Positions 12,064 to 47,059 of a stretch of 64,000 nucleotides of DNA are shown here, piece by piece. The translations under genes were made by a program, and so were the position numbers. The DNA is taken from the NCBI GenBank assembly GCA_902590895.1, contig CACIYM010000001.1:68477-132476 (forward strand), in the 5' to 3' direction. Below the pieces are notes generated by a model, which was not told the DNA's origin, did no database searches, and saw only the letters and a program-made list of their open reading frames with translations. Origin of the DNA: an uncultured Alphaproteobacteria bacterium (GTDB taxonomy: Bacteria; Pseudomonadota; Alphaproteobacteria; Methylaequorales; Methylaequoraceae). Numbering within the stretch: the first letter of the stretch is position 1; each line of letters starts with the position of its first letter.

Positions 12064-12096
12064 AAATAAAACTCCTTTATATCTTATTTAAAATAA

Positions 12097-15000: not shown

Positions 15001-15969
15001 GTCGGTAACAATGGTTACAGTTTTATCACCTTCCTCACCAAAATCGAATGCGCTGGATTCACCTGTTACTTTTGCAGGGGTTGAATCTACAAGTGTCTGT
15101 AAATCGTCTAATTTATAAAGAGCGGAACCTTTTCCCTCCAAGAAGTAGTTATCATCAGGAACCTTTGTTGTTTGTTGACCAAATCTATCAATAAATATTG
15201 GTTGTTGAGTGTCTGTTACAGAACGAACTAGATCTGGATCAATGACTGTGTCATTAATCACTAAACGAGTTTCAAACTTATTTGTCGGATCAGCTGCAGA
15301 TGCTGCTTGAGTTCTAATGAAAAATATTGTTGCAATTGTAGGGTTACCTAAGTCATCAAAGATTGTAATGGATGTTGAGTTATTGTAGGTAGTTGGATCG
15401 TTAGGATCAAAAACATATCCATTTTCAAATTGAGGTTTATCAGTAATAATCTCACTTGTAGCGGAAACGTTTACACCCAACTCAATCGAAGTTGTTGCTT
15501 TTGGAGTTCCTGAAGTAACTGGGAGCTGAAGAGGTACAGCACTAACTAAATCTTTCGCTGTGACTGAACCATCTTCGTTCACTGGGAATGTAAGCAAAAA
15601 CTGACCAGATGAATCTGTAACATATCTATCATTATTCACATTGAATGAACCATTTCTTGTATAAACCGTTTGACCGGATGTAAGTGAAGGTTTTAAGGAG
15701 AAAAAACCTTGACCCGAAATTGCTATGTCTAGAACATTAAGAGAAGATGTAATGTTACCCTGAGTAAACTGCTGTTTTACACTTTTTAAAATTGTACCTG
15801 AACCAATTGATGAGGATGCATTCTGTAATGGTGAAGTTGCAAATATATCACCAAATTCAGCTCTTGATCTTTTAAAACCAGTTGTGTTAACGTTTGCAAT
15901 ATTATTCGACGTAGCGGATATATCCGACTGTGCTCCATTAAGACCTGTTAGTGCTGTGTAAAATGACAT
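12097..15969 (-). CDS. flgE: flagellar hook protein FlgE, giant 1290-aa form
   Basis: N-terminus MSFYTALTGLNGAQSDISATSNNIANVNTTGFKR. C-terminus LERSNVDITEELVNLITAQRNFQANAKSI. It follows flgD. The central ~850 aa are a T/S/N/G/D-rich insert. Confidence 0.85.
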   Translation of the reverse strand: MSFYTALTGLNGAQSDISATSNNIANVNTTGFKRSRAEFGDIFATSPLQNASSSIGSGTILKSVKQQFTQGNITSSLNVLDIAISGQGFFSLKPSLTSGQTVYTRNGSFNVNNDRYVTDSSGQFLLTFPVNEDGSVTAKDLVSAVPLQLPVTSGTPKATTSIELGVNVSATSEIITDKPQFENGYVFDPNDPTTYNNSTSITIFDDLGNPTIATIFFIRTQAASAADPTNKFETRLVINDTVIDPDLVRSVTDTQQPIFIDRFGQQTTKVPDDNYFLEGKGSALYKLDDLQTLVDSTPAKVTGESSAFDFGEEGDKTVTIVTDPMKFNSTRESGDTSSNIYWGTNFMTINVDNSDQPVNIDIRPGSYNATQLSAEIQRAVNAAYGDDKKIQIVQNVDDTLTIDLLKLNADGTSTGLTTPVSVDLLSDSYVSDLEGIVLTGASPDFTREQFLAHTQARLNAALNEYAVNPANDAVASATALGVGDSLFYRASGKAISTILTQSQAFTFNHRTAADAATLTASGPTTTGRHLTYSYYGKTPELHVYDEVDSLGDNASTTAVSYDQSENTVRFYFGSSDPGLTANEKVRFVGKFYSDTTFNSNSDFVNGREFTIASIGSETTGGTTYHYIEASTAGMSFPDSDFTLSVANANDSANIYSEESTAVEAFFEGAQNVYQGAPVNFSSSKIVIREIGSTTKHDYTNASMVTKTTAAGAAKNIIDDLVEVFPLTDTETASGTALDTYELTGLGENTNTASRDLYLNGDGTSTDKTKPATHWVDEKDPPIEVTYDVLNQRLQFEVDRNLIGTGTNSNFNSFKIFGSSTATSENNLGIPTADDTTETLIRGGEKFSANTFVADGAEIQLNDKRFGVKVGYNSELKAFEFSSGTTGETIAANGAIGVTEAQTASSIVVGRYLLSTTNGSVTDSTDFFSGDNNLLGIGVTKTNAITTDAKGLAAQPAQAIGASATEDLTQVFRLSNQGNENIFNVSVNGVAGVIEIPQGFYVGTTLAEALQERINQIEDSAGTVGGGITVKYNSATNNFTFINGTTGRESTIKVRGASKFGLDNVDLGVGSVPQIYNLKQATNSEGLNLFVDADGNKVTTPPANLVEGYFPLYIDEGELTFDKSGAIVSPKQGVHYEKQEAGFSIDLDIDFTKSTQLAQPFFVSTVNQDGFTSGRLDGLEVDASGTVRANYTNGQNNPLGKIVLANFNNQNGLKQIGNATYVETAVSGTATVGEAGAEGFGTVLSGSLERSNVDITEELVNLITAQRNFQANAKSIETTAATTQAIVNIRM

Positions 15970-15991
15970 TTTTCTTCTCCTCTATTTAATG

Positions 15992-16696
15992 TTAATCATT
16001 TGTTTTTAGTTTGATGGCGTCATTGGCTGAAATTTCACCATAATCTTTTGTTTCTAGGATTACATCCTCACTATTTTTAGGTGCTGAGGCTGCAATTACT
16101 TTGTTATAAACGGCTGTACTTATTCCGTCACTGGCTTCGCCGTTTCCAGCATATGCTTGAATAGTTAATCTTGTTTTACTTTTTTTAATTTCATCTGGTA
16201 TATCTATCCAGCTAAAACCAACTAAACCTTTTTCTTGTGATCCAAGAGAAAGTGAATGAACTATTTCACCTGAAGGACTAGTAAATGTTAAACCAACATC
16301 GTTTGAGTAAGATGGCAAATCAACGACTCCATGAATCTCTCCATTATCATCTGGACTTACCACCTGACCTGGAACTAATACCGAGTGTCCTAAGAATTGA
16401 GCTGCAGTAGCCACTCTATTAGGTTCAAGTTTAGATCCTAAATTTGTTAAATTGTTATTAATTTCAGTAATACCCGTTACTGTTGAAAACTGTGCCATTT
16501 GAGCAATAAAATCACCGTTGTCCATTGGAGCAAAGGGATCTTGATTTTGCAATTGTGTTGTCATAAGTTTGAGAAAATCCTCTTGTCCTAAAGAATTTTT
16601 ATTTGCTGGTCTTTTTGCTTCTTCTTGAGTTTTCACTCCAAGCTTATTAAGAATGTTATTTAAAGATTGTTCAGATGATTTTGATATTTCTGTCAT
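15992..16696 (-). CDS. flgD: flagellar hook capping/assembly protein FlgD
   Basis: 234 aa. LGQEDFLKLMTTQLQNQDPFAPMD motif. Synteny supports the call. Confidence 0.85.
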   Translation of the reverse strand: MTEISKSSEQSLNNILNKLGVKTQEEAKRPANKNSLGQEDFLKLMTTQLQNQDPFAPMDNGDFIAQMAQFSTVTGITEINNNLTNLGSKLEPNRVATAAQFLGHSVLVPGQVVSPDDNGEIHGVVDLPSYSNDVGLTFTSPSGEIVHSLSLGSQEKGLVGFSWIDIPDEIKKSKTRLTIQAYAGNGEASDGISTAVYNKVIAASAPKNSEDVILETKDYGEISANDAIKLKTND

Positions 16697-16702
16697 TTTA
16701 TT

Positions 16703-17116
16703 CTACTTTCCTAAATTAGCTGTTTTGAGCATAAGTGCTTTGATTGTTGAAATTACCTCTACATTATTTTGATACTGTCTAGAAGCTTCAAGCATATCTA
16801 CATATTCTTCTTCAATGTTTACTGGAGCTTTATAAATAAACCCATCTTTGTCAGCCATAGGGTGACCGGGTTTGTATTGTTTAATAGGCTCGATATCCAT
16901 CTTCTCAACTGTTACGGCATCAACTGTTGATATCCCTTTTTTTCTAATTAGATCAAAATATTTAGTTTCAAAAACTGGTTTGACTGGTTTATATGCATCT
17001 TGTGGGTTACCAGCAATATTATCGGCATTTGCTAAATTACTGGCAATAGCATTTAATCTTACAAGTTGAGCACCCATGGCTCTTTGCGCGATATGATAAA
17101 TATTTTTAATTTCCAT
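16703..17116 (-). CDS. flgC: flagellar basal-body rod protein FlgC
   Basis: 137 aa. NAIASNLANADN at the N-terminus and VNIEEEYVDMLEASRQYQNN at the C-terminus. Confidence 0.85.
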   Translation of the reverse strand: MEIKNIYHIAQRAMGAQLVRLNAIASNLANADNIAGNPQDAYKPVKPVFETKYFDLIRKKGISTVDAVTVEKMDIEPIKQYKPGHPMADKDGFIYKAPVNIEEEYVDMLEASRQYQNNVEVISTIKALMLKTANLGK

Positions 17117-17505
17117 TATTCACCTCTAATAGCACTCATTAGTCCTGTTAACTTTGAATTTATAAAGTTTAAGGTAGTTTGATATCTAACTGAATTTTCA
17201 GCAAATTCCATTTGCTCAACTGATAATTCCACAGTATTACCATCCATTGAAGGAGTTAAAGGGTCTCTATATTGAACCTTTCCAGGTAAATTTTTTGAAG
17301 CTAACGAAATATGTCCTTTATCGGACGTTTTTAAAGGTCCTACACTCAGTACTCTTGCTAATTCAACTTCAAAGTCTACGTCTCTAGCTTTGTAGTTTGG
17401 TGTTGCAGCATTAGCAATGTTAGAGGCTAGAATTTCATTTCTTTTATTTCTTATGCCTAATGCATTGCTGTATACTTCAAATTGTTGTTTAATACTATCA
17501 GTCAT
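17116..17505 (-). CDS. flgB: flagellar basal-body rod protein FlgB
   Basis: 129 aa. RNEILASNIANAATPNYKARDVDF motif. First gene of the operon. Confidence 0.85.
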   Translation of the reverse strand: MTDSIKQQFEVYSNALGIRNKRNEILASNIANAATPNYKARDVDFEVELARVLSVGPLKTSDKGHISLASKNLPGKVQYRDPLTPSMDGNTVELSVEQMEFAENSVRYQTTLNFINSKLTGLMSAIRGE

Positions 17506-17540
17506 TTTCTATTAAAATTTATTACTTTTGGTTTGGAATT

Positions 17541-17556
17541 TGCAAATTGAATGCCA
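17541..17556 (-). promoter_or_regulatory. sigma-54 (RpoN) -24/-12 promoter for flgBCDEF
   Basis: The minus strand reads TGGCAT-TCAAT-TTGCA, matching the consensus TGGCAC-N5-TTGCW. The predicted TSS is ~25 nt upstream of the flgB ATG. Confidence 0.7.
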
Positions 17557-18534
17557 AAAGAAAGGCAAATGAATATGAATGAAAAAAATAACCTGGAAAA
17601 CGATCTAGATCCTGAGGTAATTAAAGTAAGAGATAAAATAATTACTAAAATCGGTGATAAACCATTAGAGGAAGTTAATTCAATAATTAAAAAATTATTA
17701 AATGAACAGATGGATGAGGTTACTAGAATAGGCGCATTAGCTGCTAGACTCAAAATTATAAGGTCTAAAATTGACCTTTTATATGAAAGAAAAGTAAAAA
17801 TTAATAAAGAACCAGTGCCTAAACCTACTCCGGAGAAAAAAGAGGATATGGTTTCAGTTGAAGAGCAGTGGGTAAGAGTGAAAATGGTTGAAACAGGTGA
17901 TGTTAACGGAAAGCAAATTGATAAAGGAGTTGTATTAGACGTTAAGGAAGATGATGCACAGAAATTAATAGATGCAAAAAAAGCTATACTTGACGTAGAT
18001 AAGCCAAAAAAAGAAGAAAAAAATGAGGTAAAAGCGGAAGAGAAAGATGAATCAAAGACAGAAGAAAAAGTTAAATCAAAAACAGAAGAAACAGAAGAAA
18101 CAGAAGAAACAGTTGAGTCAATAGCAGAAGAAACAGTTGAATCAAAAACAGAAGAAAAACCTGAATCAAAAACAGAAAAAACAGTTGAAACAAAAAATGA
18201 TCAAGAAGTAACAAACGAAAATAAAGCTGTTGAAAAAAAAGAGGATTCAATGGAGGAAAATTCTACAGATGAGAAAAAAGAAGACCAGTTAGGAAAAAAA
18301 GATTTATTAGAACTTCATAAAGAAAAAGAGGATCAAAAAGATTCTGATGAAGTTGACCAAAATAATACTGAGCAAAAATCAGAGTCTACGAGTCAAGCAA
18401 ATACATCAGATCAAAATAGTGAAAAAAGCTCTGAAAAGGATAATGAGTTGATATCAAATGATAAAAAAGAAGACTCTCAAGCTGAAAACAGTGCATCCGA
18501 AAAAGAAGATAAAGATGCTGACGAAAAAAAATAA
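17551..18534 (+). CDS. hypothetical acidic protein with an E/K/T-rich low-complexity C-terminal half
   Basis: 327-aa ORF with no TM segment. It contains ESKTEEK/TEETEETEE repeats. The true start may be M7 or M9, because ATG 17551 lies inside the flgB promoter motif. Confidence 0.5.
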   Translation: MPKERQMNMNEKNNLENDLDPEVIKVRDKIITKIGDKPLEEVNSIIKKLLNEQMDEVTRIGALAARLKIIRSKIDLLYERKVKINKEPVPKPTPEKKEDMVSVEEQWVRVKMVETGDVNGKQIDKGVVLDVKEDDAQKLIDAKKAILDVDKPKKEEKNEVKAEEKDESKTEEKVKSKTEETEETEETVESIAEETVESKTEEKPESKTEKTVETKNDQEVTNENKAVEKKEDSMEENSTDEKKEDQLGKKDLLELHKEKEDQKDSDEVDQNNTEQKSESTSQANTSDQNSEKSSEKDNELISNDKKEDSQAENSASEKEDKDADEKK

Positions 18535-18871
18535 AACATTAATTTTCTTTTTAGTTTGGTTACCATTTTTAATAAGTTGTGAAGACTTATTTACAAGATT
18601 TAAATATGAAACTTATGAATGTGATAAAAATCCCACAAGGTTAAAGAAAATATTTATTAAAAATTATGAGGTGGGTGAAATAGTAGAGGTTGAGTTTGAA
18701 AATGAGGGGTATGAACTAAAAATTACTGAAAATACAGATTTATTAATGAAACTAAAAAGATCTAATCCAGAAATAGAAATAAAAATTGATAAAAAGAGTA
18801 GTTTTATAAATGTAAATTTAAAAAATCACATCTCAAATTTTAAATGCACTAATTATATTTTTAAAATGTAA
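18515..18871 (+). CDS. small lipoprotein, unknown function
   Basis: Internal start giving MLTKKNKTLIFFLVWLPFLISC with lipobox L-I-S-C. The track start at 18458 would add a K-rich extension overlapping the upstream gene. Confidence 0.5.
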   Translation: MLTKKNKTLIFFLVWLPFLISCEDLFTRFKYETYECDKNPTRLKKIFIKNYEVGEIVEVEFENEGYELKITENTDLLMKLKRSNPEIEIKIDKKSSFINVNLKNHISNFKCTNYIFKM

Positions 18872-18876
18872 CGATT

Positions 18877-19299
18877 CTATTTACCGTGAAATTTTATTAT
18901 AGGCTCAATTTCCTCTTTTGACATACCAGTCATTTCAGAAATTTCTTCAATTGTTTTTCCTTCACTAGCCATTTTGATGGCATTAGTAATGTTGGAGTCT
19001 TCCTTAGAAGTATCAGCTAGTCTTGATGTTTCTTGTTCTAATCTCTCTAAAGTATATTTATAGTCTTGTAAAATTTTTTTTTGATCAGAAAATAAAAGTT
19101 CGAAAGATCTGAACTCTTCAATTAAATCTTTTATTGCTCTTTCTAACATTGATATTTTTTTTTCATTAAGTTTATTTTTTTTTAAATCGTAATAAAAAGC
19201 CACAGAAACTGTTATGAAAATAAAAATAAAGAATATTATTACAACTGACGATAAGGTAGAGGAGGGGTCCTTTTTGAACAAATTACCTAAAAAATCCAT
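18877..19299 (-). CDS. DUF2802-like flagellar-locus protein (N-terminal TM, coiled coil, C-terminal HTH-like tail)
   Basis: 140 aa. TM segment VVIIFFIFIFITVSVAFYY. The tail NAIKMASEGKTIEEISEMTGMSKEEIEPIIKFH matches my recollection of the DUF2802 C-terminus found in Pseudomonas/Vibrio flagellar clusters. Confidence 0.45.
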   Translation of the reverse strand: MDFLGNLFKKDPSSTLSSVVIIFFIFIFITVSVAFYYDLKKNKLNEKKISMLERAIKDLIEEFRSFELLFSDQKKILQDYKYTLERLEQETSRLADTSKEDSNITNAIKMASEGKTIEEISEMTGMSKEEIEPIIKFHGK

Positions 19300-19335
19300 A
19301 ACCTATATTATGTTTTTAAATCTAAATCGACAAGG

Positions 19336-19617
19336 TTAATTAATTTTTCTATTTTTTAAAAAATTGTTAAAATCATCTAAAAAGTTTTTTTTGGCGTCTT
19401 GTTTATTATTAAGTTTTTCTAAAAGAACTTTAAGTTTTTTGAGTTTCTCTTCTATCAGATTTTTTTGTGTTTCGGTTTGATTAAATAAGTCAACTTTTAG
19501 TTCTTGGAATGACATCGATATTTCTTTTTCGGTTTCTTGGATTTTTTCCGAGTTTTCGAGATCAGCACTTATTTCAATTAAATTAATTAGGCGATCTAAT
19601 TGATCTTTAACATTCAT
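19336..19617 (-). CDS. small coiled-coil protein in the flgN position (possible FlgN-like chaperone)
   Basis: 93 aa, helical. Positioned directly after flgM as in the enteric flgA-flgM-flgN order. I recognised no sequence motif. Confidence 0.3.
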   Translation of the reverse strand: MNVKDQLDRLINLIEISADLENSEKIQETEKEISMSFQELKVDLFNQTETQKNLIEEKLKKLKVLLEKLNNKQDAKKNFLDDFNNFLKNRKIN

Positions 19618-19625
19618 TTAATGTA

Positions 19626-19940
19626 TTAATCTTTCATTTCCTTGTAAGCATCAAATAATGCATCAGCGATTTTATCTAAGTCAATGGGATAAGATCCATT
19701 AGCTATGGCATTTTTAATTCTTGTGGTTGAAACTTTATCAATCGGAGGTTGCTTTGCCATGTCCTTAATTGTTTCCTTACTTACAAATTGTGATACTTTA
19801 CCGCTATCAACGTCTACTTTTGTTCTAGTAGGATCAACTTTCTGTACTGAAGCTTTGGCATGTTTAGTATCAGTTCTCGTTACATTGTTACTTCCTGAAC
19901 TGCTCAAACTGTTTAACTTACTTTTTAATTGATCTATCAT
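19626..19940 (-). CDS. flgM: anti-sigma-28 factor FlgM
   Basis: 104 aa. The C-terminus IKNAIANGSYPIDLDKIADALF is typical of FlgM. It follows flgA. Confidence 0.75.
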   Translation of the reverse strand: MIDQLKSKLNSLSSSGSNNVTRTDTKHAKASVQKVDPTRTKVDVDSGKVSQFVSKETIKDMAKQPPIDKVSTTRIKNAIANGSYPIDLDKIADALFDAYKEMKD

Positions 19941-19975
19941 AACTATTTATCCTTTATTATATATACGACAACTGT

Positions 19976-20665
19976 TTAATTTTGTTTAGCTTTTAATACA
20001 ACTTTTTTTTGATTTTTTGCAAAACCATATATAACTTTACCACTTTTAATATTTTTTACCTTCAAAACATCCATAAAATCTGCATTTTCTAATGCTATAC
20101 CCTGATCTTTAACCGTTATGCTACCTATTTTGTTTTCTATTATTATAGAGCTATTTTTTTGAATTAGCCAATCTTTTTCAAGATTTGAATGATAAATAGG
20201 TCTGTTGGAGTTAATTGATTTCTTAAGTTTTTTTCCAATAAGATCTGTTTTATTTTTAACCAAATCATTTTTATTATTAACACGCTTTTTAATTACAATG
20301 ACATCGTCTTCATTTATAATTGTTCCACTTTTCATACTATTTTTTAAAGCTAATACATTTACGTTGTTTTTTGTCTTATTATTAGACTCTACATTTTGTT
20401 TGTTTCTGACAATAAAACTCCATTTATCCTCACCAATGCAATTAACTTTGATTAATCTATAGCTACCAGAGATATCAGAAATTAAAAGATCTTTCTCATT
20501 ACAATATGGATATTTAATATTATCTAAAATTTCTATTTGGGTTTTAGCTCCTTTAGTTTTTAACCAGTTCGAAATTCTTTCTTTTAATTCAAAGCCATTT
20601 ATGGTGGATGCGTTTGAATAATTAAAAATAAAACACAAAATAAATGAATAAATAAATTTTCTCAT
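19976..20665 (-). CDS. flgA: flagellar P-ring assembly chaperone FlgA
   Basis: 229 aa with a signal peptide. C-terminal SAF-like segment (GKKLKKSINSNRPIYHSNL...VKNIKSGKVIYG). Confidence 0.7.
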   Translation of the reverse strand: MRKFIYSFILCFIFNYSNASTINGFELKERISNWLKTKGAKTQIEILDNIKYPYCNEKDLLISDISGSYRLIKVNCIGEDKWSFIVRNKQNVESNNKTKNNVNVLALKNSMKSGTIINEDDVIVIKKRVNNKNDLVKNKTDLIGKKLKKSINSNRPIYHSNLEKDWLIQKNSSIIIENKIGSITVKDQGIALENADFMDVLKVKNIKSGKVIYGFAKNQKKVVLKAKQN

Positions 20666-20670
20666 TAAAG

Positions 20671-21102
20671 TTAATTTCCGTAAAAGTAAATGTGATTTTT
20701 TTTATTATCAAAGCTTGTTTTCTTATCAGGCTTATTTTTTACTAAATTCATTATTTGATTAACAGATGGTATAGCAATCCTTTTTCCCGAGAATAAGTAA
20801 TTAGGATTATTTCTTACAAATGCATGTTTATTAATCTCAACAAGAGAAAGTTCCACTATTCTCATGTTTAAACCAGAGTTACCATAATATTTTTTAAGAA
20901 TTACACTCAATGATTCTCCATCTTTAACTAAGTGTGAGGTTGAATAATTTTGATCTTTAATAAATTTATTATTTTTATTAATTTTTGATGAGGCATTGCT
21001 TGACATGTTACCTTTGTATTCAAGTACGACAAAAGGTTCGTTTGATTTTGAAACTGTAAAGTTTAAAAAAAATACAAAAATAATAAAGTAAAATTTTTTC
21101 AT
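20671..21102 (-). CDS. secreted FimV/HubP-type LysM-domain protein
   Basis: 143 aa with a signal peptide. HLVKDGESLSVILKKYY...LVEINKHAFVRNNPNYLFSGKRIAIPS resembles the FimV N-terminal LysM pattern (..NP.AF...N.L..G..L.iP). Confidence 0.5.
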   Translation of the reverse strand: MKKFYFIIFVFFLNFTVSKSNEPFVVLEYKGNMSSNASSKINKNNKFIKDQNYSTSHLVKDGESLSVILKKYYGNSGLNMRIVELSLVEINKHAFVRNNPNYLFSGKRIAIPSVNQIMNLVKNKPDKKTSFDNKKNHIYFYGN

Positions 21103-21110
21103 GGTTTTTC

Positions 21111-22289
21111 CTAATTCATAAATCTAATTAATTTTCCGTTAATATCCTCTTTTTTATTTGCAGGATTTAGAATTTCTAAAACAGAGAAATCTCCACTTGA
21201 ATCTTTAACTGTAACAACGATCCAATCTCTCATTGAATGATTAGGGTTATTGTTAGATGCAAATCCAACCTTTCCTATTTGAACACCTTGATTAATACCA
21301 AGTGGAATTGTTAAAACATCTTTCACAAGTTCAGCTCTTGCCTCAAGTGGGTAACATTTTAATCTATCTTTGACTCTAAATTGCATTTTAGAAATACTAT
21401 TTTGAACGACTTCTTCAATTTTGTCATATGGTATTTTATAAAAGCCATCCACATGTTGATAGCCTGTTTCAATACCCAATAACACCGAAAAATTATAATT
21501 TAGGGTATCTATAATATTAAAATTAGTTCCCTCAAAAAGATTGATTGTTAGTGCAACATCAACTTTATTTAAAAATCTTGTCAACGTTCCTTTGCTGCGT
21601 TTCAGTTCAATTAGAGTGTGCATACCAAATTCACCTGATTTAAGAGAACCTGATTTTCCTTCAACTAACGCCTGATAATCCAAACTTATAGGTAACGCAG
21701 AAAATTTCTTTGGATTAAAATCAAAATTTGTTGAATCCTTTAATGAAATTTGATCAAAACTAGTTAAATTCTCAAATATTTTTTGAGATATTAACAGGGG
21801 TAAACTCTGTAATTGAGCAGGAAGTTTACTTGAAACCACAAAATTTGGTTTAAAATAACTTAAGTTAATATTACTTCTCGCTGAACAGTCTAGTAAACTA
21901 TTTATACTTACTAAAATAGCCTTAATTTTTACAGTGTAGTGAGTTTCGTCTTTGCTTTCCTCTAAAATTACAAAGTCCTTAATTGATGATGATGGTCTAA
22001 TCAATAAATTTTCATTTAATGAAGTATTGGTGTCAACCGTTGAATAGCCGTCTATTTTAGCACCAGCTTGCAGACTAGCCAAATACAAAGCATCGTCTAG
22101 AGCTCTTTTTTTTGCAATCATTTCATTTCCATCAACAATTACAGCTCTTCCTTCTGAAATAATAGCTTTGTGAGAAATTTCTTGAGCAACTAGCAATGTT
22201 GATGCAAAAAGAAAAAATAGCAATGTAGTTACAAAAACTATTAATTCTTTTATTACAGAATCAACTTTATTATAAGTAAACTTTTTCAA
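21111..22289 (-). CDS. flgT: FlgT-like flagellar H-ring/assembly protein
   Basis: 392 aa with an N-terminal signal/anchor. AKKRALDDALYLASLQAGAKIDGYS and the C-terminal beta-rich region resemble Vibrio FlgT. Adjacent to flgP. Confidence 0.55.
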   Translation of the reverse strand: MKKFTYNKVDSVIKELIVFVTTLLFFLFASTLLVAQEISHKAIISEGRAVIVDGNEMIAKKRALDDALYLASLQAGAKIDGYSTVDTNTSLNENLLIRPSSSIKDFVILEESKDETHYTVKIKAILVSINSLLDCSARSNINLSYFKPNFVVSSKLPAQLQSLPLLISQKIFENLTSFDQISLKDSTNFDFNPKKFSALPISLDYQALVEGKSGSLKSGEFGMHTLIELKRSKGTLTRFLNKVDVALTINLFEGTNFNIIDTLNYNFSVLLGIETGYQHVDGFYKIPYDKIEEVVQNSISKMQFRVKDRLKCYPLEARAELVKDVLTIPLGINQGVQIGKVGFASNNNPNHSMRDWIVVTVKDSSGDFSVLEILNPANKKEDINGKLIRFMN

Positions 22290-22320
22290 ACTTATTTCCT
22301 TTATACTTTATTAATAACTC

Positions 22321-22824
22321 TTAAATTGATTGTGCTTGTCTAAATAAATATGCGACCATATCCTGATCGATTTCTAATACTGTTTCATATGTATCAGAGC
22401 CAGTTGGATTAATTCTAACTGTTCGTGCGCCTCTTATTACGCCTGAAACGATGCCTCTGAAAGTATCATTTTGAACCATTAAATCTATAACTGTAGTATT
22501 ACTATCAACCTTTAAACCATGTATTTGCTCTGCTAATTCTCTCATCGCCGACATTCTTGCTGCCCTGATAGCCATTAAACGTCTTTGTTCGATGCTTTGA
22601 CCAGGTTGTGTTGATACAACTGCATAACCTGTTGCTGTTAAGGTTGGAAATGTTATCGATGCACCATCAAGTAATTCTCTAGTTTTATTTAATTGATTTG
22701 TTGGAGCAGAATATTCGTCATCGGTTTGAGCAAAGCTTGTTTGATTTAATCCTAGATTTCCCAACATGCCTGGGGCACAAGACTGTGTTATTAAAATTAA
22801 TATAGCTAAAAAAGTTTTTTTCAT
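22321..22824 (-). CDS. flgP: FlgP / LPP20-family flagellar outer-membrane lipoprotein
   Basis: 167 aa. Lipobox LITQSC. RRLMAIRAARMSAMRELAEQIHGLKVDS...GVIRGAR is the LPP20/FlgP pattern. Confidence 0.65.
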   Translation of the reverse strand: MKKTFLAILILITQSCAPGMLGNLGLNQTSFAQTDDEYSAPTNQLNKTRELLDGASITFPTLTATGYAVVSTQPGQSIEQRRLMAIRAARMSAMRELAEQIHGLKVDSNTTVIDLMVQNDTFRGIVSGVIRGARTVRINPTGSDTYETVLEIDQDMVAYLFRQAQSI

Positions 22825-22870
22825 TTTTTTTTCCTTATGATAGTTATTTAGTTATTCTGGAAAGTCTTTT

Positions 22871-22885
22871 GCATAATTTATGCCA
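22871..22885 (-). promoter_or_regulatory. sigma-54-type promoter for the flgP-flgT-...-flgA operon
   Basis: The minus strand reads TGGCAT-AAATT-ATGC, with correct GG-N10-GC spacing. The predicted TSS is ~35 nt upstream of the flgP ATG, followed by an AAGGA SD. Confidence 0.55.
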
Positions 22886-22921
22886 TTATTTCTTTTTATT
22901 CCGTTTGCAAATCTTTGTCCG

Positions 22922-22937
22922 TGGCATACGCCTTGCA
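22922..22937 (+). promoter_or_regulatory. sigma-54 promoter for flhA-flhF-flhG-fliA
   Basis: The plus strand reads TGGCAT-ACGCC-TTGCA. The predicted TSS is ~76 nt upstream of the flhA ATG. Confidence 0.7.
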
Positions 22938-23023
22938 TCAATTGAGTTATGAAAAAAAATAAAAAAAAACCCTTTATTATTGGGACTTTTTCTTGTCAAT
23001 ATTTTGACCAAAAAGGAAATTAG

Positions 23024-25156
23024 ATGGATCTAGTATTAAAAAGCTTTCAAAAAGAAAATTTTTTTAATTTTTTAAGAACATTTAGCATTCCAATTGGAAT
23101 TATGGTTTTAATCGCGATGATGGTTATTCCATTGAGTCCCACAATGCTGGATATTCTCTTTACTTCAAATCTATTAGTTTCTTTACTTGTTTTAATGGTA
23201 GCATTACAGACCTTCCGACCTCTAGACTTTTCAAGTTTTCCAACTGTTTTGTTATTTGCTACCGTTTTAAGACTCGGACTAAATGTCGCTTCAACCAGAG
23301 TAATTTTAAAAAATGGTCATAATGGTACAGATGCTGCTGGAAGCATTATTGAAGCCTTTGGTGAATTCGTTATGTCGGGGAGTTATGCTGTAGGCCTCTT
23401 TGTTTTTGCAATTTTAGTGATTATTAACCTTATTGTAATCACAAAAGGAGCTGGGAGAGTTTCCGAGGTTGCCGCAAGATTTACTTTGGATGCGATGCCT
23501 GGAAAACAAATGGCAATTGATGCTGACTTGAATGCAGGAGTTTTATCTACTGAGGAGTCAAAACAGAGAAGAAAAGAAATTGCTAAAGAAGGAGAATTTT
23601 ATGGAGCTATGGATGGTGCAGCAAAGTTTGTAAAGGGAGATGCAATAGCCGGAATTTTAATTTTAATTATCAATATCATCGGTGGGTTAATTATTGGTAC
23701 TGTTAATCACGACCTTACCATATCTCAATCTGCTGAAAGTTATATTCTTTTAACAGTTGGTGATGGTTTGGTAGCCCAAATTCCTTCATTACTATTAGCA
23801 ATGGCAACTGCAACGATTGTTACAAGAATTTCTTCAGATGAACATGATCTAGCTGGACAAATTTCAACTCAAATGGGTTTATCGAAGGCTTGGGTACCGG
23901 TTTCTGGTGTATTATTATTATTTGGTCTTGTTCCTGGAATGCCAAATACCTTGTTTTTAGCTGGTGCAGTTATATCAGCTACAATTGCTTGGTACACATC
24001 AAAGAATTCAGAGGCAATTGATAAAGAGACTACAGAAGAAGAAAAAGAAGAAAATCATGGTAAAATTGATATTGAAGAGGTGTCAGATAACTCTTCGGTA
24101 TCTTTAGATCTTGGATATGGACTAATTTCAATGGTTGATTCAAATGAAAAAAAGTCAGCTGGCCCTCTAATTTCAAAGATAACTGGAATAAGAAAACAAG
24201 TATCAAAAGATTTAGGGTTTGTGATTCCAAATGTAAGAGTAAGAGATGATTTATCTTTAGATGCAAATGCTTATCAAATTAAAATTGGGCATACAATTGT
24301 CGCAGAGGATAAAATATATGTTGACAGAAAGCTTGCAATGCCAAGTGACGAAACACAACTTAAAATTCAAGGTATTCAAGTAAAAGATCCTTCTTTTGGT
24401 TTAGATGCTTATTGGATTGAAAAGCATTTGGTTTCAAAAGCTGAGTCACATCATTATATGATTATCGAACCTGAGGCAGTCATTGGGACTCATCTAAATC
24501 AAGTTTTACTCAAATATGCTGGAGATCTTTTAAGTCAAGACGATGTTCAACTCTTGTTGGATAATCTGGCAAAAATCAATCCACAGTTAGTTCAATCAGT
24601 GATACCTAAATTGATTCCTTTGCATCACCTAACAATTATTTTGAGAAATTTATTAGTAGAGAGAGTGCCAATTAATGATTTAAAAAAAATCTTAGAAGCA
24701 TTATCAAATCTTTCCGACAAAAAATTAAGTCCTGACGAACTTTCAGAAGCTGTGAGACCAGCAATCTCGTCGTTATTAATTCAAAAAATTTCAAGTGTAA
24801 AAGAAGCTTTAAACATAGTAACTTTTAATCCTGACTTAGAGCAAATGCTAATTTCAATGTCAAAAAAAAGTACCTCTGAAGGACTTTTAATTGACCCTAA
24901 CCTCGCTAAACAAATGATTAAATCAATACTAGAGATAAACGAAAAGACTTCCTCAGATGGAAATCCAGTAGTAATAGTTACATCACCTATTATTAGGAAA
25001 GACCTTTCAATTTTACTTCGTCAGCACATCGAGGATATCGTAGTTTTAGCTTTCACCGAACTTCCTGAAAGTAAAAGGGTTAAAGTAATTGCTACTGTTG
25101 GCGAAAAAATAATCACTGAAGAAAAGGAGAAAAACAATGAAAACGCAAACGTTTAA
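23024..25156 (+). CDS. flhA: flagellar export apparatus protein FlhA
   Basis: 710 aa. FHIPxR-region equivalents (RVSEVAARFTLDAMPGKQMAIDADL, AMDGAAKFVKGDAIAG) and a cytoplasmic C-terminal domain. Confidence 0.9.
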   Translation: MDLVLKSFQKENFFNFLRTFSIPIGIMVLIAMMVIPLSPTMLDILFTSNLLVSLLVLMVALQTFRPLDFSSFPTVLLFATVLRLGLNVASTRVILKNGHNGTDAAGSIIEAFGEFVMSGSYAVGLFVFAILVIINLIVITKGAGRVSEVAARFTLDAMPGKQMAIDADLNAGVLSTEESKQRRKEIAKEGEFYGAMDGAAKFVKGDAIAGILILIINIIGGLIIGTVNHDLTISQSAESYILLTVGDGLVAQIPSLLLAMATATIVTRISSDEHDLAGQISTQMGLSKAWVPVSGVLLLFGLVPGMPNTLFLAGAVISATIAWYTSKNSEAIDKETTEEEKEENHGKIDIEEVSDNSSVSLDLGYGLISMVDSNEKKSAGPLISKITGIRKQVSKDLGFVIPNVRVRDDLSLDANAYQIKIGHTIVAEDKIYVDRKLAMPSDETQLKIQGIQVKDPSFGLDAYWIEKHLVSKAESHHYMIIEPEAVIGTHLNQVLLKYAGDLLSQDDVQLLLDNLAKINPQLVQSVIPKLIPLHHLTIILRNLLVERVPINDLKKILEALSNLSDKKLSPDELSEAVRPAISSLLIQKISSVKEALNIVTFNPDLEQMLISMSKKSTSEGLLIDPNLAKQMIKSILEINEKTSSDGNPVVIVTSPIIRKDLSILLRQHIEDIVVLAFTELPESKRVKVIATVGEKIITEEKEKNNENANV

Positions 25157-26294
25157 AGCTAAAGATGTTAAGTCTGCTATAAATCTGGTAAACACAGAAT
25201 TTGGAGATAAAGCAATAATTTTATCAACAAAAAAAAATAATGGTTTTGTAGAGGTCGAAGCATCTGATAATGACGATATTATTTTTGATCATAAAAAAAA
25301 AGTTGAAGAAAATAAAAACTTTTCAAACGTTTTTTTGAAAGAATTAAAAACAAAAAATATTAATTCAACACTTAATGATAAAAATAAAGTTTCTTATCTA
25401 AATAAAGAAAATAGTAATATTAAAAAAGATAATATTTCAAAAGATTCAAAAGAAATCTTTGAAAAAATTAGAGACGATATAGCTTCATTAAGAAAAGAAA
25501 TGAATGGGATGATTGTTACAGATCAGTCAGGAATTTCTGATGAACTTTCTCATCAAACACCTATCAAGTTAAGACAAGAAAAATTTTCACCTGAAATAAT
25601 TAACAAACTTAATTACTCATTTATTGGAAAAAGTTTAGAAGATGGTAGAGTTTCATTTTTTAGAGAATTATCAAGAAAACTTGCATCAAATGATTTCTCA
25701 AGGTTATTAAAATCAAAAAATATATTTATATTTGGCAATTCTGGTTCTGGAAAATCCACTTTGGCTGCTAAACTTGCTTCTTTTCTATCAGATGCGAAAC
25801 AAACAAAAAAAATAAATTTTTTTGAGGTCTCTAACTCTAGTACTGGGTTATCTGACGTTCTCAAGTCCTATAGCAGGGTTTTGGGATTTAATTTAAATGA
25901 TTACAATACGTTTGATTTCAAGAATTATAGTGATACCAGCGAATGGATAAATATTTTTGATTTTTCTGGTGAATTGAATTTTAGTATTCAAAAAATAAAA
26001 GAGATCAAAAATTCATTTCCGTCTTTTGATTTTTGTTCTATATTGACAATACAAAGTGGTTCAAATTCAGAAATGATAAATGGGATAACAAAAAAAGTTG
26101 AAGAAATAAGACCAATGGTTGCGATTACAAAGCTTGACGAATGCTGGGTAGGTGCCGAGGAATTTTCTTCACTTGCTATTAATAATGCTAGAATTGGAAT
26201 GGTGACTGGAACAAAGATCATAATTGATTCAATTATTGAAGCAAATGAAAATGCTTTAACAAAATATATGAAAGATAATTTTGAAAATGTCTGA
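25137..26294 (+). CDS. flhF: flagellar SRP-type GTPase FlhF
   Basis: 385 aa. The N-terminus MKTQTFKAKDVKSAINLVNTEFGDKAIILS is FlhF B-domain-like. G1 is GNSGSGKST, G3 is DFSG, G4 is TKLDE. Confidence 0.75.
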   Translation: MKTQTFKAKDVKSAINLVNTEFGDKAIILSTKKNNGFVEVEASDNDDIIFDHKKKVEENKNFSNVFLKELKTKNINSTLNDKNKVSYLNKENSNIKKDNISKDSKEIFEKIRDDIASLRKEMNGMIVTDQSGISDELSHQTPIKLRQEKFSPEIINKLNYSFIGKSLEDGRVSFFRELSRKLASNDFSRLLKSKNIFIFGNSGSGKSTLAAKLASFLSDAKQTKKINFFEVSNSSTGLSDVLKSYSRVLGFNLNDYNTFDFKNYSDTSEWINIFDFSGELNFSIQKIKEIKNSFPSFDFCSILTIQSGSNSEMINGITKKVEEIRPMVAITKLDECWVGAEEFSSLAINNARIGMVTGTKIIIDSIIEANENALTKYMKDNFENV

Positions 26295-27084
26295 TTCAAT
26301 TGCAATAACTAGCGGAAAAGGTGGAGTTGGAAAAACAACAATTGCTGTAAACTTATCAATAGCTTTAAAAAAAATTTCCTCAGAAGTTTATCTTCTAGAT
26401 ACCGATTTAGGAATGGCCAACTCACATGTTTTGTTAGGTGTTAACCCAGCTCATTCAATTTCTGATGTAATAAATAATAAAAAAAAAATTTCTGAAATCA
26501 TCGTTCCAAGTAAAAGCGGGGTACAACTTATATCTGGAGGAACCGCTTCCAATAACTTACTGAATGTTGAGAACAAGAAAAGATACTCCATTTTAAATCA
26601 AATCGATAGCCATTTAAAAGATCAAAACGACGTTAAATTAGTAGTTGATATAGCTGCTGGTGCGGAGGACAATGCATTAGTGTTTGCAATGGCTTGCGAC
26701 AGAGTTGTGATTGTGATTATTGGAGAACCAACAAGTTTCGTTGACTCTTATGCACTTCTAAAGGCAATTTTTTCGAAATCATCATTTAAAAATTATTGTG
26801 TTGTTGTTAATCAGGTTCAAGATGAGGATCAAGGAAAAGATCTTTTTCTGAAATTTCAAAAAATTACTACAAGGTTTTTAGACGTTAATTTGCATTACGT
26901 AGGTTCAATTAAAAATTCTCCCAAAATAAGAAAGTCAATTATTAATAGGATCCCAATAGTTTCAGAGGAACCAAAATCCGATATTTCACAGAGCTTTCTC
27001 AGTGTTGCAAAGAATATTTACAACACTCCAACAAATGAGTGGGGAGGCCTAACATTTTTATCAAAAGTAAAAAAAAGAGCTTAA
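26281..27084 (+). CDS. flhG: MinD/ParA-type ATPase FlhG (FleN)
   Basis: 267 aa. Deviant Walker A SGKGGVGKTT almost at the N-terminus. Positioned between flhF and fliA. Confidence 0.8.
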   Translation: MKMSDSIAITSGKGGVGKTTIAVNLSIALKKISSEVYLLDTDLGMANSHVLLGVNPAHSISDVINNKKKISEIIVPSKSGVQLISGGTASNNLLNVENKKRYSILNQIDSHLKDQNDVKLVVDIAAGAEDNALVFAMACDRVVIVIIGEPTSFVDSYALLKAIFSKSSFKNYCVVVNQVQDEDQGKDLFLKFQKITTRFLDVNLHYVGSIKNSPKIRKSIINRIPIVSEEPKSDISQSFLSVAKNIYNTPTNEWGGLTFLSKVKKRA

Positions 27085-27091
27085 TGTCTAG

Positions 27092-27790
27092 ATGGCAAAT
27101 TATTATACAGACAAATCAAAAATTTCAATAAATCAACTTATTGAAAACAACCTTGAATTAGTTAAAAAAATTGCTTGGCAAATTTTTGGAAGAGTCCAAA
27201 GAGTTGTTGAGGTTGAAGATCTTATTCAACAAGGAATGGAGGGTTTAGTCTCTGCTGCTCAAAAGTATTCTCCGAAAGAGGGTGTAAATTTTCAACAATA
27301 TGCTCAGTTAAGAATTAGGGGCTCAATAATTGATTTTCTCAGAAAAAATTCAAATTTATGTAGGACCACTATTAAAAAAAAACAAGAATTTGAAAAATGT
27401 AAGGTTTCATTACAAAAAGAATTAAGTCGAGAGCCTAGTAAATACGAATTAATTGAAAAATTAGGTATTACTGATGATGAGTATAACTACTGGGAAAAAG
27501 CTTTTGAAGCCAATACTCTTCAAAGTTTAGATCAGGCATATGATGAGTACTCAGTAATATATGCAAGTTCATCAAATGATCCAGAAATATCACTTCAGGA
27601 TAAACAGTTGAAAGACCAAATTAAAAAAGCATTAAGTGTCCTAAACCAAAGAGAGGCAATGGTTGCACAGCTATATTATGTGGAAGAATTAAATATTTAT
27701 GAAATATCAGAAATCTTAGAGATTAGTACTGGAAGAATATCACAAATAAAAAAAGTAATAATTGAAAAATTAAGGCATGAAATTAGTTGA
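27092..27790 (+). CDS. fliA: flagellar sigma factor FliA (sigma-28)
   Basis: 232 aa. Region 2 (DLIQQGMEGLVSAAQKY, YAQLRIRGSIIDFLR) and a region 4 HTH (LNIYEISEILEISTGRISQI). Confidence 0.85.
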   Translation: MANYYTDKSKISINQLIENNLELVKKIAWQIFGRVQRVVEVEDLIQQGMEGLVSAAQKYSPKEGVNFQQYAQLRIRGSIIDFLRKNSNLCRTTIKKKQEFEKCKVSLQKELSREPSKYELIEKLGITDDEYNYWEKAFEANTLQSLDQAYDEYSVIYASSSNDPEISLQDKQLKDQIKKALSVLNQREAMVAQLYYVEELNIYEISEILEISTGRISQIKKVIIEKLRHEIS

Positions 27791-28193
27791 CCCAAAAAAA
27801 GAAAACTGGAAAGAGATAAATAAAATTGTATTAATTGTTAATGCTGTTGACTTTGATTACTCTGAAAAACTTGCTATAAATCTTAACTGTAACTTTGAAA
27901 ATATTTCCAAAGGAAGATGTACAGTGAGAATAAACGAAAAAAAAAATAAGTGTACAAATTCATTATCAGTTCTATCAAATCAAGCACTAATGATGGTTAA
28001 TATTTTTTATGAATATTTAGAGATTGAGAAGTTGGTTAACTTTATAATTTTAAACAAAAATAATAAAAAAAAAATAAAGGGTTTTATAGAAATTTTTGAT
28101 AATCTAATGGTTAACGACTCAGGTTATTTGTATGTAAATAATGAAATGGAAATAAAAATTAAAAAAATTTCTTGGAATATACCTATTATCTAG
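27777..28193 (+). CDS. hypothetical protein coupled to fliA
   Basis: 138-aa ORF overlapping the fliA end by 14 nt. N/K/I-rich, with no motif recognised. Confidence 0.35.
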   Translation: MKLVDPKKENWKEINKIVLIVNAVDFDYSEKLAINLNCNFENISKGRCTVRINEKKNKCTNSLSVLSNQALMMVNIFYEYLEIEKLVNFIILNKNNKKKIKGFIEIFDNLMVNDSGYLYVNNEMEIKIKKISWNIPII

Positions 28194-28980
28194 CTGATAA
28201 CTTCTTAGTAACATCAATATCAGATTGCATCATTTTAGAACATCCATTAAATGCTTGTTGTGTTCTTAACATTAGTATAATTTCATCTGTGATATCTGTG
28301 TTAGATTTTTCTAAAAAACCGGCTTGAAGTTTTCCTAATGTTCCTTCCTTGGGAGCAGCAAATGTTGGAACTCCACTTTCTCCTGTCTCTTGAAATCTAG
28401 CACTACCGATATTTTGCAATCCAAATTCATTTACAAAGTCTGCAAGTGCAATTCTTCCTACAATATTTTTGGTATCTAATCCATATGTTGCTTCTATTGT
28501 ACCATCATTATCAACTTTAATTTCTGTTAGAATTGCTTCTCCATCATCGGTCGCAGATTTGAATGGTATATTAATTAATGCTTGTCCTTCGCCTAATAAA
28601 GGTAAACCATCTGTTGTAACTAGGTTTCCTTGTCTATCAAGTTGAAATGACCCATCTCTTGTGTAAGTTAATGCTTGATTTGCCAATTCTCTTCCGACAG
28701 GAGAACCTAATACAAAAAAACCTTCTCCCATAATTGCTAGGTCAAGACTACCATTTGTCTGTTGAAGGGAGCCTTGAGAGAAGTTTTGTCTTGGTTTAAT
28801 TGCTTTTACACCAATCCCTCTTGCAACTTCTTGAGATCTGTTATGATGGGAATGGTACATATCTTCAAATTGTGCCTCACTTTTTTTAAAACCATTAGTA
28901 CCAGCATTTGCAATGTTGTTAGATATTACTGCCAAATCCTTATTAGCTGCGTCTAAACCTGTTCTTAGTATGCTAAACAT
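28186..28980 (-). CDS. flgG: flagellar distal rod protein FlgG (or FlgG/FlgE-family paralog)
   Basis: 264 aa. NNIANAGTNGFKKSEAQFEDM, YTRDGSFQLDRQGNLVT and LEKSNTDITDEIILMLRTQQAF parallel E. coli FlgG. Confidence 0.65.
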   Translation of the reverse strand: MFSILRTGLDAANKDLAVISNNIANAGTNGFKKSEAQFEDMYHSHHNRSQEVARGIGVKAIKPRQNFSQGSLQQTNGSLDLAIMGEGFFVLGSPVGRELANQALTYTRDGSFQLDRQGNLVTTDGLPLLGEGQALINIPFKSATDDGEAILTEIKVDNDGTIEATYGLDTKNIVGRIALADFVNEFGLQNIGSARFQETGESGVPTFAAPKEGTLGKLQAGFLEKSNTDITDEIILMLRTQQAFNGCSKMMQSDIDVTKKLSAR

Positions 28981-28992
28981 AAATAGTTAAGA

Positions 28993-29007
28993 GCAATTTA
29001 TATGCCA
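28993..29007 (-). promoter_or_regulatory. sigma-54 promoter for flgG
   Basis: The minus strand reads TGGCAT-ATAAA-TTGC. The -12 C is only 12 nt from the ATG, so the predicted TSS lies 1 nt upstream of the start codon. Confidence 0.6.
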
Positions 29008-29051
29008 TTTTAAGTTGTTGATAATTTATTTTAATTGTATATTTAAATTTC

Positions 29052-29127
29052 GGGCGGATAGCTCAGCTGGGAGAGCAATTGCTCGACACGCAATAGGTCG
29101 CAGGTTCGATCCCTGTTCCGCCCACCA
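29052..29127 (+). tRNA. tRNA-Val (anticodon GAC)
   Basis: 76-nt canonical cloverleaf. Acceptor GGGCGGA/TCCGCCC. D arm GCTC-AGCTGGGA-GAGC. Anticodon stem ATTGC/GCAAT with loop TCGACAC. T-loop TTCGATC. Encoded CCA. Confidence 0.85.
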
Positions 29128-46757: not shown

Positions 46758-47059
46758 GTCAAAAACTGCTAAAGTTATTTAAAGTTGATAACTATTTTAG
46801 ATTATTAATTATTTTCACAGTTTTTGGTATCACTGGCTCGCTTTCAGTAGTTTTAGGAAAATATGTACTGATCAGTATTTTTTCTTCAAATATTCTAAAT
46901 AATGAGTTTTATTGGTTAATCAGAATATTATTAATTTTTCCCCTATATCAAATTTTATTAATTATTATAGGAACTTTATTCGGAGAGTTTAAATATTTTT
47001 GGGCTATTGAGAAAAAGATACTTGTAAGATTAAAAATTTTGAAATCACCTCCTAGTTAA
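46754..47059 (+). CDS. small integral membrane protein, unknown function
   Basis: 101 aa. GTG start in a GTGA overlap with the cyaY stop. 2-3 TM helices. Confidence 0.45.
   Translation: MSQKLLKLFKVDNYFRLLIIFTVFGITGSLSVVLGKYVLISIFSSNILNNEFYWLIRILLIFPLYQILLIIIGTLFGEFKYFWAIEKKILVRLKILKSPPS

Follow-up and report, generated by a model that had tools for sequence, protein, structure and literature searches.

How are the flagellar operons of an AT-rich, uncultured marine alphaproteobacterium transcribed? The question is raised by a stretch of 64,000 nucleotides (positions 68,477 to 132,476 of contig CACIYM010000001.1, assembly GCA_902590895.1; the whole stretch is referred to as the window), in which four flagellar transcription units carry closely similar sigma-54 (RpoN)-like motifs upstream of their first gene. 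We conclude that these motifs very probably are functional -24/-12 sigma-54 promoters of flgBCDEF, flgP-flgT-lysM-flgA, flhA-flhF-flhG-fliA and a flgG-like gene. That sigma-54 promoters drive the adjacent flagellar operons had been proposed in an initial annotation of the window, and the proposal was found to be strongly supported by the retention of the sites in related loci and by the RpoN sites of Vibrio cholerae.

All four motif sequences of the initial annotation were found exactly in place. Upstream of flgB, TGGCATTCAATTTGCA (TGGCAT-TCAAT-TTGCA; 17541-17556, minus strand) fits the consensus TGGCAY-N5-TTGCW (Y is C or T, W is A or T, and N is any nucleotide) with 0 mismatches and lies 35 nt before the flgB ATG. 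Its C at position -12 is nucleotide 17542, and the transcription start site (TSS) is predicted at ~17530, giving a leader of 25 nt. The flhA site, TGGCATACGCCTTGCA (TGGCAT-ACGCC-TTGCA; 22922-22937, plus strand), also has 0 mismatches and is found 86 nt before the flhA ATG, with C(-12) at 22936 and a predicted TSS at ~22948. Equally free of mismatches is the flgG-like site, TGGCATATAAATTGCT (TGGCAT-ATAAA-TTGCT; 28992-29007, minus strand), only 11 nt before the ATG; here C(-12) is at 28993 and the TSS is predicted at 28981, one nucleotide before the ATG at 28980. The flgP site, TGGCATAAATTATGCA (TGGCAT-AAATT-ATGCA; 22870-22885, minus strand), deviates by one nucleotide, the A at -15. It lies 45 nt before the flgP ATG, has C(-12) at 22871 and a predicted TSS at ~22859, and would serve flgP-flgT-lysM-flgA and possibly flgM and the genes beyond. 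The flhA and flgP promoters stand back-to-back, with 36 bp separating their -24 elements. GG and GC were exactly 10 nt apart at all four sites, and each motif was directed at the adjacent operon, 11-86 nt from a start codon, both as initially annotated.

The string TGGCAT-N5-TTGC had 4 exact matches in the window compared to 0.10 expected from dinucleotide-preserving shuffles of the window (n = 100), none of which reached 4 (0/100); the earlier estimate of well under one chance occurrence in 64 kb is borne out. Of the four annotated sites, those of flgB, flhA and the flgG-like gene are exact matches. The flgP site, with ATGC at -15 to -12, is recovered only when one mismatch is allowed, and the fourth exact match is TGGCATGGCTGTTGCT at 41536-41551 (plus strand), inside the pntB coding sequence (codons G-M-A-V-A) and 765 nt before the next gene on the same strand. 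This pntB-internal motif is probably a chance or coding-constrained occurrence. Intergenic DNA makes up 4.5% of the window and has a GC content of 23%, the window as a whole having 30.4%. With up to one mismatch allowed, 4 of 6 sites were intergenic, and with up to two allowed, 6 of 20 (binomial p ~6e-5; p-values given here take related loci to be independent and are to be read as upper bounds on significance). The intergenic near-consensus sites were all located inside the flagellar cluster and aimed at a start codon 11-150 nt away.

Relatives were collected by a metagenome scan with a FlgP alignment, which gave 80 marine loci with FlgP identities of 59-98%. The best GG-N10-GC site within 320 nt upstream of each orthologous start codon was recorded; GG and GC were required, and their invariance holds by construction of the scan. 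A sigma-54-like motif was found at the orthologous position in each of 168 gene-locus pairs (flgB 18/18, flgP 71/71, flhA 66/66 and flgG-like 13/13). For flgB the motif was without mismatch in all 18 loci, including locus L002 at 59% GC (TGGCAC-CGTTA-TTGCA). Among the 64 distinct 16-mers, T1, C4, A5 and T13 were invariant and position 6 was C or T only. The 5-nt spacer was variable, with 5-27 distinct forms per promoter (27 for flhA), and sequence identity fell below 60% on both flanks of the motif. FlgP, FlhA and FlgB of the clade have diverged to 55-60% identity while the motif cores were kept. The motif was also kept at syntenic positions in the relatives of 54-59% GC (L002 and L153), L002 having TGGCACCGTTATTGCA before flgB and TGGCACGGAACTTGCC before flhA. 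A fixed core amid drifting spacers and flanks indicates continuing purifying selection on the sigma-54 contacts. The stronger argument lies in the independent support from spacer variation and from retention in GC-rich clades, in which cores and distances were kept while spacers and flanks diverged.

The individual promoters also carry signatures of their own. At -15 the flgP site is A or G without exception (ATGCA or GTGCA in 71/71), and at -11 the flgG-like site is T throughout (9/9 distinct sites), where flgB, flgP and flhA have A. In Cereibacter (Rhodobacter) sphaeroides, promoter position -11 influences RpoN choice (PMC11999139).

Sites at the same genes are known in V. cholerae, where chromatin immunoprecipitation sequencing together with RNA sequencing placed RpoN promoters at flhA, flhFG-fliA, flgBCDE, flgFGH, flgOP and flgT (PMC3439928). 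Several of these RpoN sites contain TGGCAT, and that of fliE is TGGCATACAAATTGC (PMC3439928).

The genes behind the four promoters were identified with NCBIfam and Pfam scans that covered most window open reading frames (ORFs) of at least 70 aa (~70 proteins), and the identities of flgB, flgC, flgD, flgE, flgF, flhA, flhF, flhG, fliA, flgP, flgT, flgA and flgM all held. The flgB-flgC-flgD-flgE-flgF operon (11275-17505, minus strand; NCBIfam) has gaps of 0-33 nt between its genes. The genes for a DUF2802 protein, a 93-aa ORF in the flgN position, flgM, flgA, a LysM protein, flgT (FlgT_N) and flgP (LPP20) occupy 18877-22824 on the minus strand, and flhA-flhF-flhG-fliA is followed by a 138-aa ORF (orf138) in an operon at 23024-28193 on the plus strand. 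The monocistronic flgG-like gene (28186-28980, minus strand) encodes a 264-aa rod protein of the FlgE/F/G family, for which the best full-length model was FlgG at 179.8 bits, below the curated cutoff of 252.75. The FlhA of the window is nearest to that of a single-cell assembly labelled uncultured Alphaproteobacteria (98% identity) among public genomes, followed by a metagenome-assembled genome labelled 'Rhodobiaceae' (59%). Beyond these two the relatives belong to gamma- and betaproteobacteria alone (39-49% identity; gammaproteobacteria 44-49%). As the FlhA relatives outside the clade are all gamma- or betaproteobacterial, the flagellar set is of the gammaproteobacterial polar type (FlhF/FlhG, FlgP/FlgT H-ring and FliA/FlgM) in an alphaproteobacterium.

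The initial annotation further held that a sigma-54 motif stands at every flagellar operon start. The four sites stand, but flgM and the gene divergent from flgB had been left out, and the flgM-flgN-DUF2802 unit was found to have a conserved sigma-28-like promoter instead. This sigma-28 (FliA)-type promoter, TAAA-N15-GTCGTATA (19962-19988, minus strand), is located 21 nt before the flgM ATG and partly inside the 3' end of flgA, with a TSS predicted at ~19955. It emerged from stacking orthologous upstream regions; a search of the window with the strict Escherichia coli/Vibrio sigma-28 consensus returned noise only. The form TAAA-N15-GTCGTWWA was found in 30 of 32 loci, including the GC-rich L002, at 19-33 nt before the ATG, and has a single match in the window. 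In the classical hierarchies of Vibrio, Pseudomonas and Salmonella, flgM is likewise a sigma-28 (late-class) gene. No sigma-54 motif of their own was found at flgT (0/63), flgA (0/21) or fliA (0/21), and flgT and flgA appear to be internal to the flgP operon and fliA to the flhA operon.

The leader of flhA contains a palindrome, GTCAATATTTTGAC (GTCA-N6-TGAC; 22995-23008), that is a candidate site for an activator of the FleQ/FlrA type. It is the single occurrence of GTCA-N6-TGAC in the window, and no box of this type was found near flgB or the flgG-like gene. It also lies ~135 bp upstream of the predicted flgP TSS, a classical enhancer position. All AT-clade loci listed have kept it with at most one mismatch to GTCAA-N4-TTGAC, at a distance of 14-17 nt (in a subset 26 nt) upstream of the flhA ATG. 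The palindrome fits 12 of 14 positions of the FleQ consensus GTCaNTAAAtTGAC proposed for Pseudomonas aeruginosa (Baraquet and Harwood, 2016, as quoted in PMC6120874), with the same half-sites and spacing. In a relaxed search, Pseudomonas flhA leaders were found to have a related GTCAAAAGTTTGA/C box between PflhA and flhA. An RNA element in the flhA leader was also considered and was not supported: there was no Rfam hit, the fold z-score was -0.95, and the fifth stem position changes without compensation.

With these data at hand, three other explanations of the four motifs can be weighed. They might be operators for an ordinary dimeric transcription factor, the operons being read from nearby AT-rich sigma-70 promoters. 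In favour of operators, there is partial dyad symmetry in GCA-N7-TGC, near-symmetry in the 28-bp flgB element and a perfect palindrome, GCATAA-A-TTATGC, in the flgP site. Against them, symmetry is lacking at three of the four sites, where TGG occurs at one end, invariably the one distal to the gene. The letters kept are precisely those of the sigma-54 consensus, and RpoN is bound in vivo at the V. cholerae orthologues of these promoters (PMC3439928). Sigma-70-like hexamers do overlap the flgG-like site; the consensus scan for sigma-70 promoters and terminators was, however, uninformative in this AT-rich DNA, where sigma-70-like matches were no commoner than in shuffles (48 compared to 58.9 expected). 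We therefore regard the operator explanation as improbable.

The motifs might also be vestiges of a horizontally acquired gammaproteobacterial cluster, unused because the host lacks rpoN or the activators. The gammaproteobacterial affinity of FlhA outside the clade (44-49% identity) fits this explanation, as does the failure to find an rpoN or activator gene in the sequences searched. Vestiges would not, however, be expected to keep G/C-rich cores unchanged in intergenic DNA of 23% GC while the proteins of the clade diverged to 55-60% identity and spacers and flanks drifted freely, and this makes a vestigial motif very unlikely, more so than an operator. Chance matches in an AT-rich genome, for which the perfect match inside pntB could be cited, are already refuted by the shuffles, by the intergenic enrichment and by conservation in 168/168 gene-locus pairs, with invariant cores between drifting spacers and flanks.

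Several observations weigh against sigma-54 promoters, or against the activator site proposed for them. No rpoN gene and no activator with GAFTGA and Walker A motifs was found in the window, in the 10 kb beyond its right end or in 82 related loci, and their presence in the genome is assumed. Neither a master activator gene (FlrA/FleQ) nor a two-component pair (FlrBC/FleSR) was found there. A six-frame search of 161 sequences for the RpoN box and for the GAFTGA and Walker A motifs of activators had matches in four gamma-/betaproteobacterial loci only, and the 10-kb extension carries housekeeping genes only. All TSS positions are predictions from motif geometry. Because the loci share ancestry, 66/66 and similar counts are not made up of independent events. 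In the GC-rich L002, the motif of the flgG-like gene is merely a degenerate one (TGGTAT-N5-TTGAA) and the leader is of the ordinary Shine-Dalgarno kind, and the perfect motif within pntB has no plausible target. With respect to the palindrome, its strict form is missing from 42 gammaproteobacterial flhA upstream regions and from the alphaproteobacterial clade at 57-69% identity, and the proposed FleQ consensus has been judged unreliable genome-wide (PMC6120874).

For functional sigma-54 promoters, which remain the reading we prefer, the following mechanism can be proposed. From established knowledge of sigma-54, the holoenzyme would bind as a closed complex and would need an AAA+ enhancer-binding protein, encoded outside the window. 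At flhA, and probably also at flgP, a FleQ/FlrA-type activator would act from GTCA-N6-TGAC in the flhA leader. At flgB and the flgG-like gene, where intergenic regions of 63 and 71 bp are too short for an upstream site, activation would fall to a second activator or to one that works independently of an enhancer. The sigma-28-type flgM promoter would then be read by FliA produced from the flhA operon, for a minimum of three tiers, which is also the pattern of Vibrio and Pseudomonas. The initial annotation had placed flhA-flhF-flhG-fliA, the rod/hook genes and the H-ring genes in one RpoN-dependent tier, and this part of it was not supported. The FleQ-box-like palindrome is found only at flhA/flgP, which together with the short flgB and flgG-like gaps suggests two kinds of activation, and the sigma-54 classes to which flhA and flgB belong differ, as do their activators, in Vibrio, Pseudomonas and C. 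sphaeroides (PMC3439928; PMC11999139). There is probably more than one sigma-54 class among the four promoters.

The flgB promoter has a further feature. It is followed by a conserved block, AAATTCCAAACCA, that read on the opposite strand is a mirror-image sigma-54-like motif, TGGTTT-GGAAT-TTGCA (17529-17544, plus strand), pointing at a divergent gene, orfX. Its conservation suggests that it may act as a promoter. The mirror motif and the flgB promoter share the palindromic TTGCAA (-12 G:C pair at 17542-17543), and the joint element at 17529-17556 is a 28-bp quasi-palindrome of the form GG-N10-GC-N10-CC within the 63-bp flgB-orfX intergenic region. TGG and TTGCA of the mirror motif were kept in 18/18 flgB loci, which comprise three diverged groups (TGGTTT, TGGTGT and, in L002, TGGCCC), and in 3 further loci, making 21/21. 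On the orfX side the predicted TSS is at ~17555, a Shine-Dalgarno sequence GAAAGG is found at 17560-17565, and the true start is likely the ATG at 17569 and not that at 17551. Across loci the Shine-Dalgarno sequence and the orfX start come 24-35 nt after the mirror motif. The starts predicted at ~17530 and ~17555 each fall on the -24 element of the other promoter. Since the -12 GC is shared as well, the holoenzyme would be accommodated in one orientation at a time; the mirror half would fire toward orfX, and the flgB and orfX orientations would be mutually exclusive. A literature search returned nothing directly relevant on bidirectional sigma-54 promoters. A mirror motif at the flgP promoter (TGGAAAGTCTTTTGCA; 22858-22873, plus strand) was rejected as chance, as it is not conserved in close relatives.

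The product of orfX (17569-18534, plus strand; 321 aa) is conserved over its N-terminal 140 aa and ends in a tail rich in acidic residues and lysine. Its 130 homologues are restricted to the lineage, have essentially no Pfam domains, and none of them is functionally named. No family and no sequence match in PDB was found for it, and an AlphaFold2 model (predicted local distance difference test score 68) had no fold match in PDB (best Foldseek E-value 0.05). The ORF after orfX (18458-18871, plus strand) encodes a small putative lipoprotein with a lipobox-like ...LVWLPFLISC. As its annotated start overlaps orfX by 77 nt, translation probably begins at an internal Met near 18515.

At the flgG-like gene and at flhA it is the distance from the motif to the first ATG that was conserved. 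The flgG-like ATG was found 10-12 nt after the motif in 13/13 loci, without a Shine-Dalgarno sequence and with an in-frame TAA 9 nt upstream. In flhA leaders an ATG follows the motif by 9-13 nt (mode 11) in 49 of 52 unique leaders. In the window this ATG lies 11 nt after the flhA -12 element and opens a small ORF (MKKNKKKPFIIGTFSCQYFDQKGN and a stop codon; 22949-23023, plus strand), the stop of which abuts the flhA ATG and within which the palindrome is located. In 44/52 leaders a small ORF of 20-37 codons covers the full leader length and terminates at the flhA ATG or shortly beyond it, compared to 3/104 in the other frames and 10.6% in shuffled leaders. The peptide is not conserved and its frame relative to the palindrome shifts between close relatives; if anything is selected, it would be translation itself. 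We predict that the small ORF is leaderless and that its translation is coupled to that of flhA. The geometry at both genes suggests leaderless sigma-54 transcripts, and the fixed position of the ATG is in turn an indirect hint that transcription starts where predicted, ~12 nt after the GC. This leaderless-type geometry is not present in the GC-rich relatives. Leaderless mRNAs are documented in alphaproteobacteria, and in Sinorhizobium meliloti all of them begin with AUG (PMC3616915); a literature search returned no report that links leaderless mRNAs to sigma-54.

The flgG-like promoter is confined to 71 bp (28981-29051) between its gene and tRNA-Val (29052-29127, plus strand), which begins 45 nt upstream of the -24 element, and this synteny was kept in 12/13 loci. 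With only 71 bp between the two genes, a conventional upstream enhancer could not be accommodated. A sigma-70-like sequence, TTTATA-17-GATAAT (28997-29025, plus strand), is a possible tRNA-Val promoter. As it overlaps the sigma-54 motif, the two promoters may compete.

These features can be drawn together in the proposal that the sigma-54 promoters of this streamlined lineage have been compacted, with a bidirectional 28-bp element at flgB/orfX that would be used in one orientation at a time, and with transcripts that would start at AUG, namely a leaderless flgG-like mRNA and a leaderless ORF of 20-37 codons that runs across the flhA leader and the FleQ-like site and would couple flhA translation to its own. 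We put this forward tentatively and hold it to be possible, if somewhat short of probable. The mirrored promoter and the leaderless geometry, both argued from conservation across loci, are the only parts that may surprise specialists.

Elsewhere in the window, the hook protein FlgE (12097-15969, minus strand) has 1290 aa, about three times the usual length, with an insert of ~900 aa between normal FlgE N- and C-terminal domains. At 47045-51713 (minus strand) an 887-aa protein without family match precedes a protein with weak similarity to MotA/ExbB and a peptidoglycan-binding protein of the OmpA/MotB type (PRK09039 family); this module may be stator-like or Tol-like, unrelated to the flagellar cluster. 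The remaining genes are housekeeping genes of alphaproteobacterial appearance, including a split pntA, a COQ9-family protein, CyaY and tol-pal genes.

The main result is reassuring more than surprising: AT-rich uncultured marine alphaproteobacteria would run a gammaproteobacterial-type polar flagellum from sigma-54 and then sigma-28 promoters. Since this wiring is familiar, motility and its regulation can be inferred from sequence alone for these abundant organisms, and the conserved sites give precise TSS predictions. A literature search on motility of this lineage returned nothing directly relevant. Were the compaction real, it would extend the sigma-54 promoter repertoire by a symmetric two-way promoter and by sigma-54-driven leaderless translation. 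It would also exemplify how regulatory DNA is packed into the 60-70 bp intergenic gaps of streamlined genomes, and would bear on the need of activators for enhancers.

Compared to known systems, the window has a layout of the Vibrio/Pseudomonas type, in which the flhA-flhF-flhG-fliA unit and the flgB rod/hook unit each stand behind a sigma-54 promoter and the late gene flgM behind a sigma-28 promoter. The flagellar regulon of V. cholerae has four tiers, from RpoN/FlrA via FlrBC to FliA (Dong and Mekalanos, 2012; PMC3439928). RpoN promoters are found at the same units (flhA, flgBCDE, the flgOP/flgT H-ring genes and flgFGH), flhF, flhG and fliA follow flhA in both, and TGGCAT is common in both, as seen for fliE of V. 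cholerae (TGGCATACAAATTGC) and the flgG-like site of the window (TGGCATATAAATTGC). The window differs from V. cholerae in its host, an alphaproteobacterium with 30% GC and 4.5% intergenic DNA, and in gene arrangement: flgP heads an operon with flgT and flgA, no internal flhF promoter was seen in the window, and the flgG-like gene lies apart from flgF with a promoter of its own beside a tRNA gene. Neither the leaderless starts predicted here nor a mirrored flgB promoter has been described in Vibrio.

The flgB element resembles the bidirectional promoters that Warman and co-workers reportedly described in 2021, which are said to arise from sequence symmetry of the sigma-70 -10 element in bacteria. 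Both would use one symmetric core for the two strands, here the self-complementary GC in TTGCAA, and in both the divergent transcripts would overlap at their 5' ends, by a predicted ~26 nt at flgB. The flgB element would differ in being a sigma-54 version, with conservation pointing to a possible function of its second orientation.

In Pseudomonas putida the flhA-flhF-fleN-fliA operon is transcribed from PflhA, which depends on sigma-54 and FleQ (PMC6424431), and FleQ binding at flhA, fliE and fliL is promoter-proximal and involves no looping (PMC6120874). As at PflhA, a GTCA...TGA-type box is located past the promoter and ahead of flhA, within the transcribed leader. The window differs in that the box, a candidate site, is a strict GTCA-N6-TGAC, lies inside a small predicted ORF and is at about -135 for the divergent flgP promoter. 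With Fla1 of C. sphaeroides the window has in common an alphaproteobacterial host with flagellar genes of gammaproteobacterial type. Fla1 is regarded as having been acquired from a gammaproteobacterium. It is governed by a four-tier sigma-54 hierarchy with a dedicated RpoN2 and FleQ and then FleQ/FleT, FleT being without a DNA-binding domain (PMC11999139). Given RpoN promoters at the same operon starts in V. cholerae, a sigma-54-dependent PflhA in P. putida and a sigma-54 hierarchy in C. sphaeroides, the system described here is a new instance of a well-known regulatory design, the Vibrio/Pseudomonas control logic.

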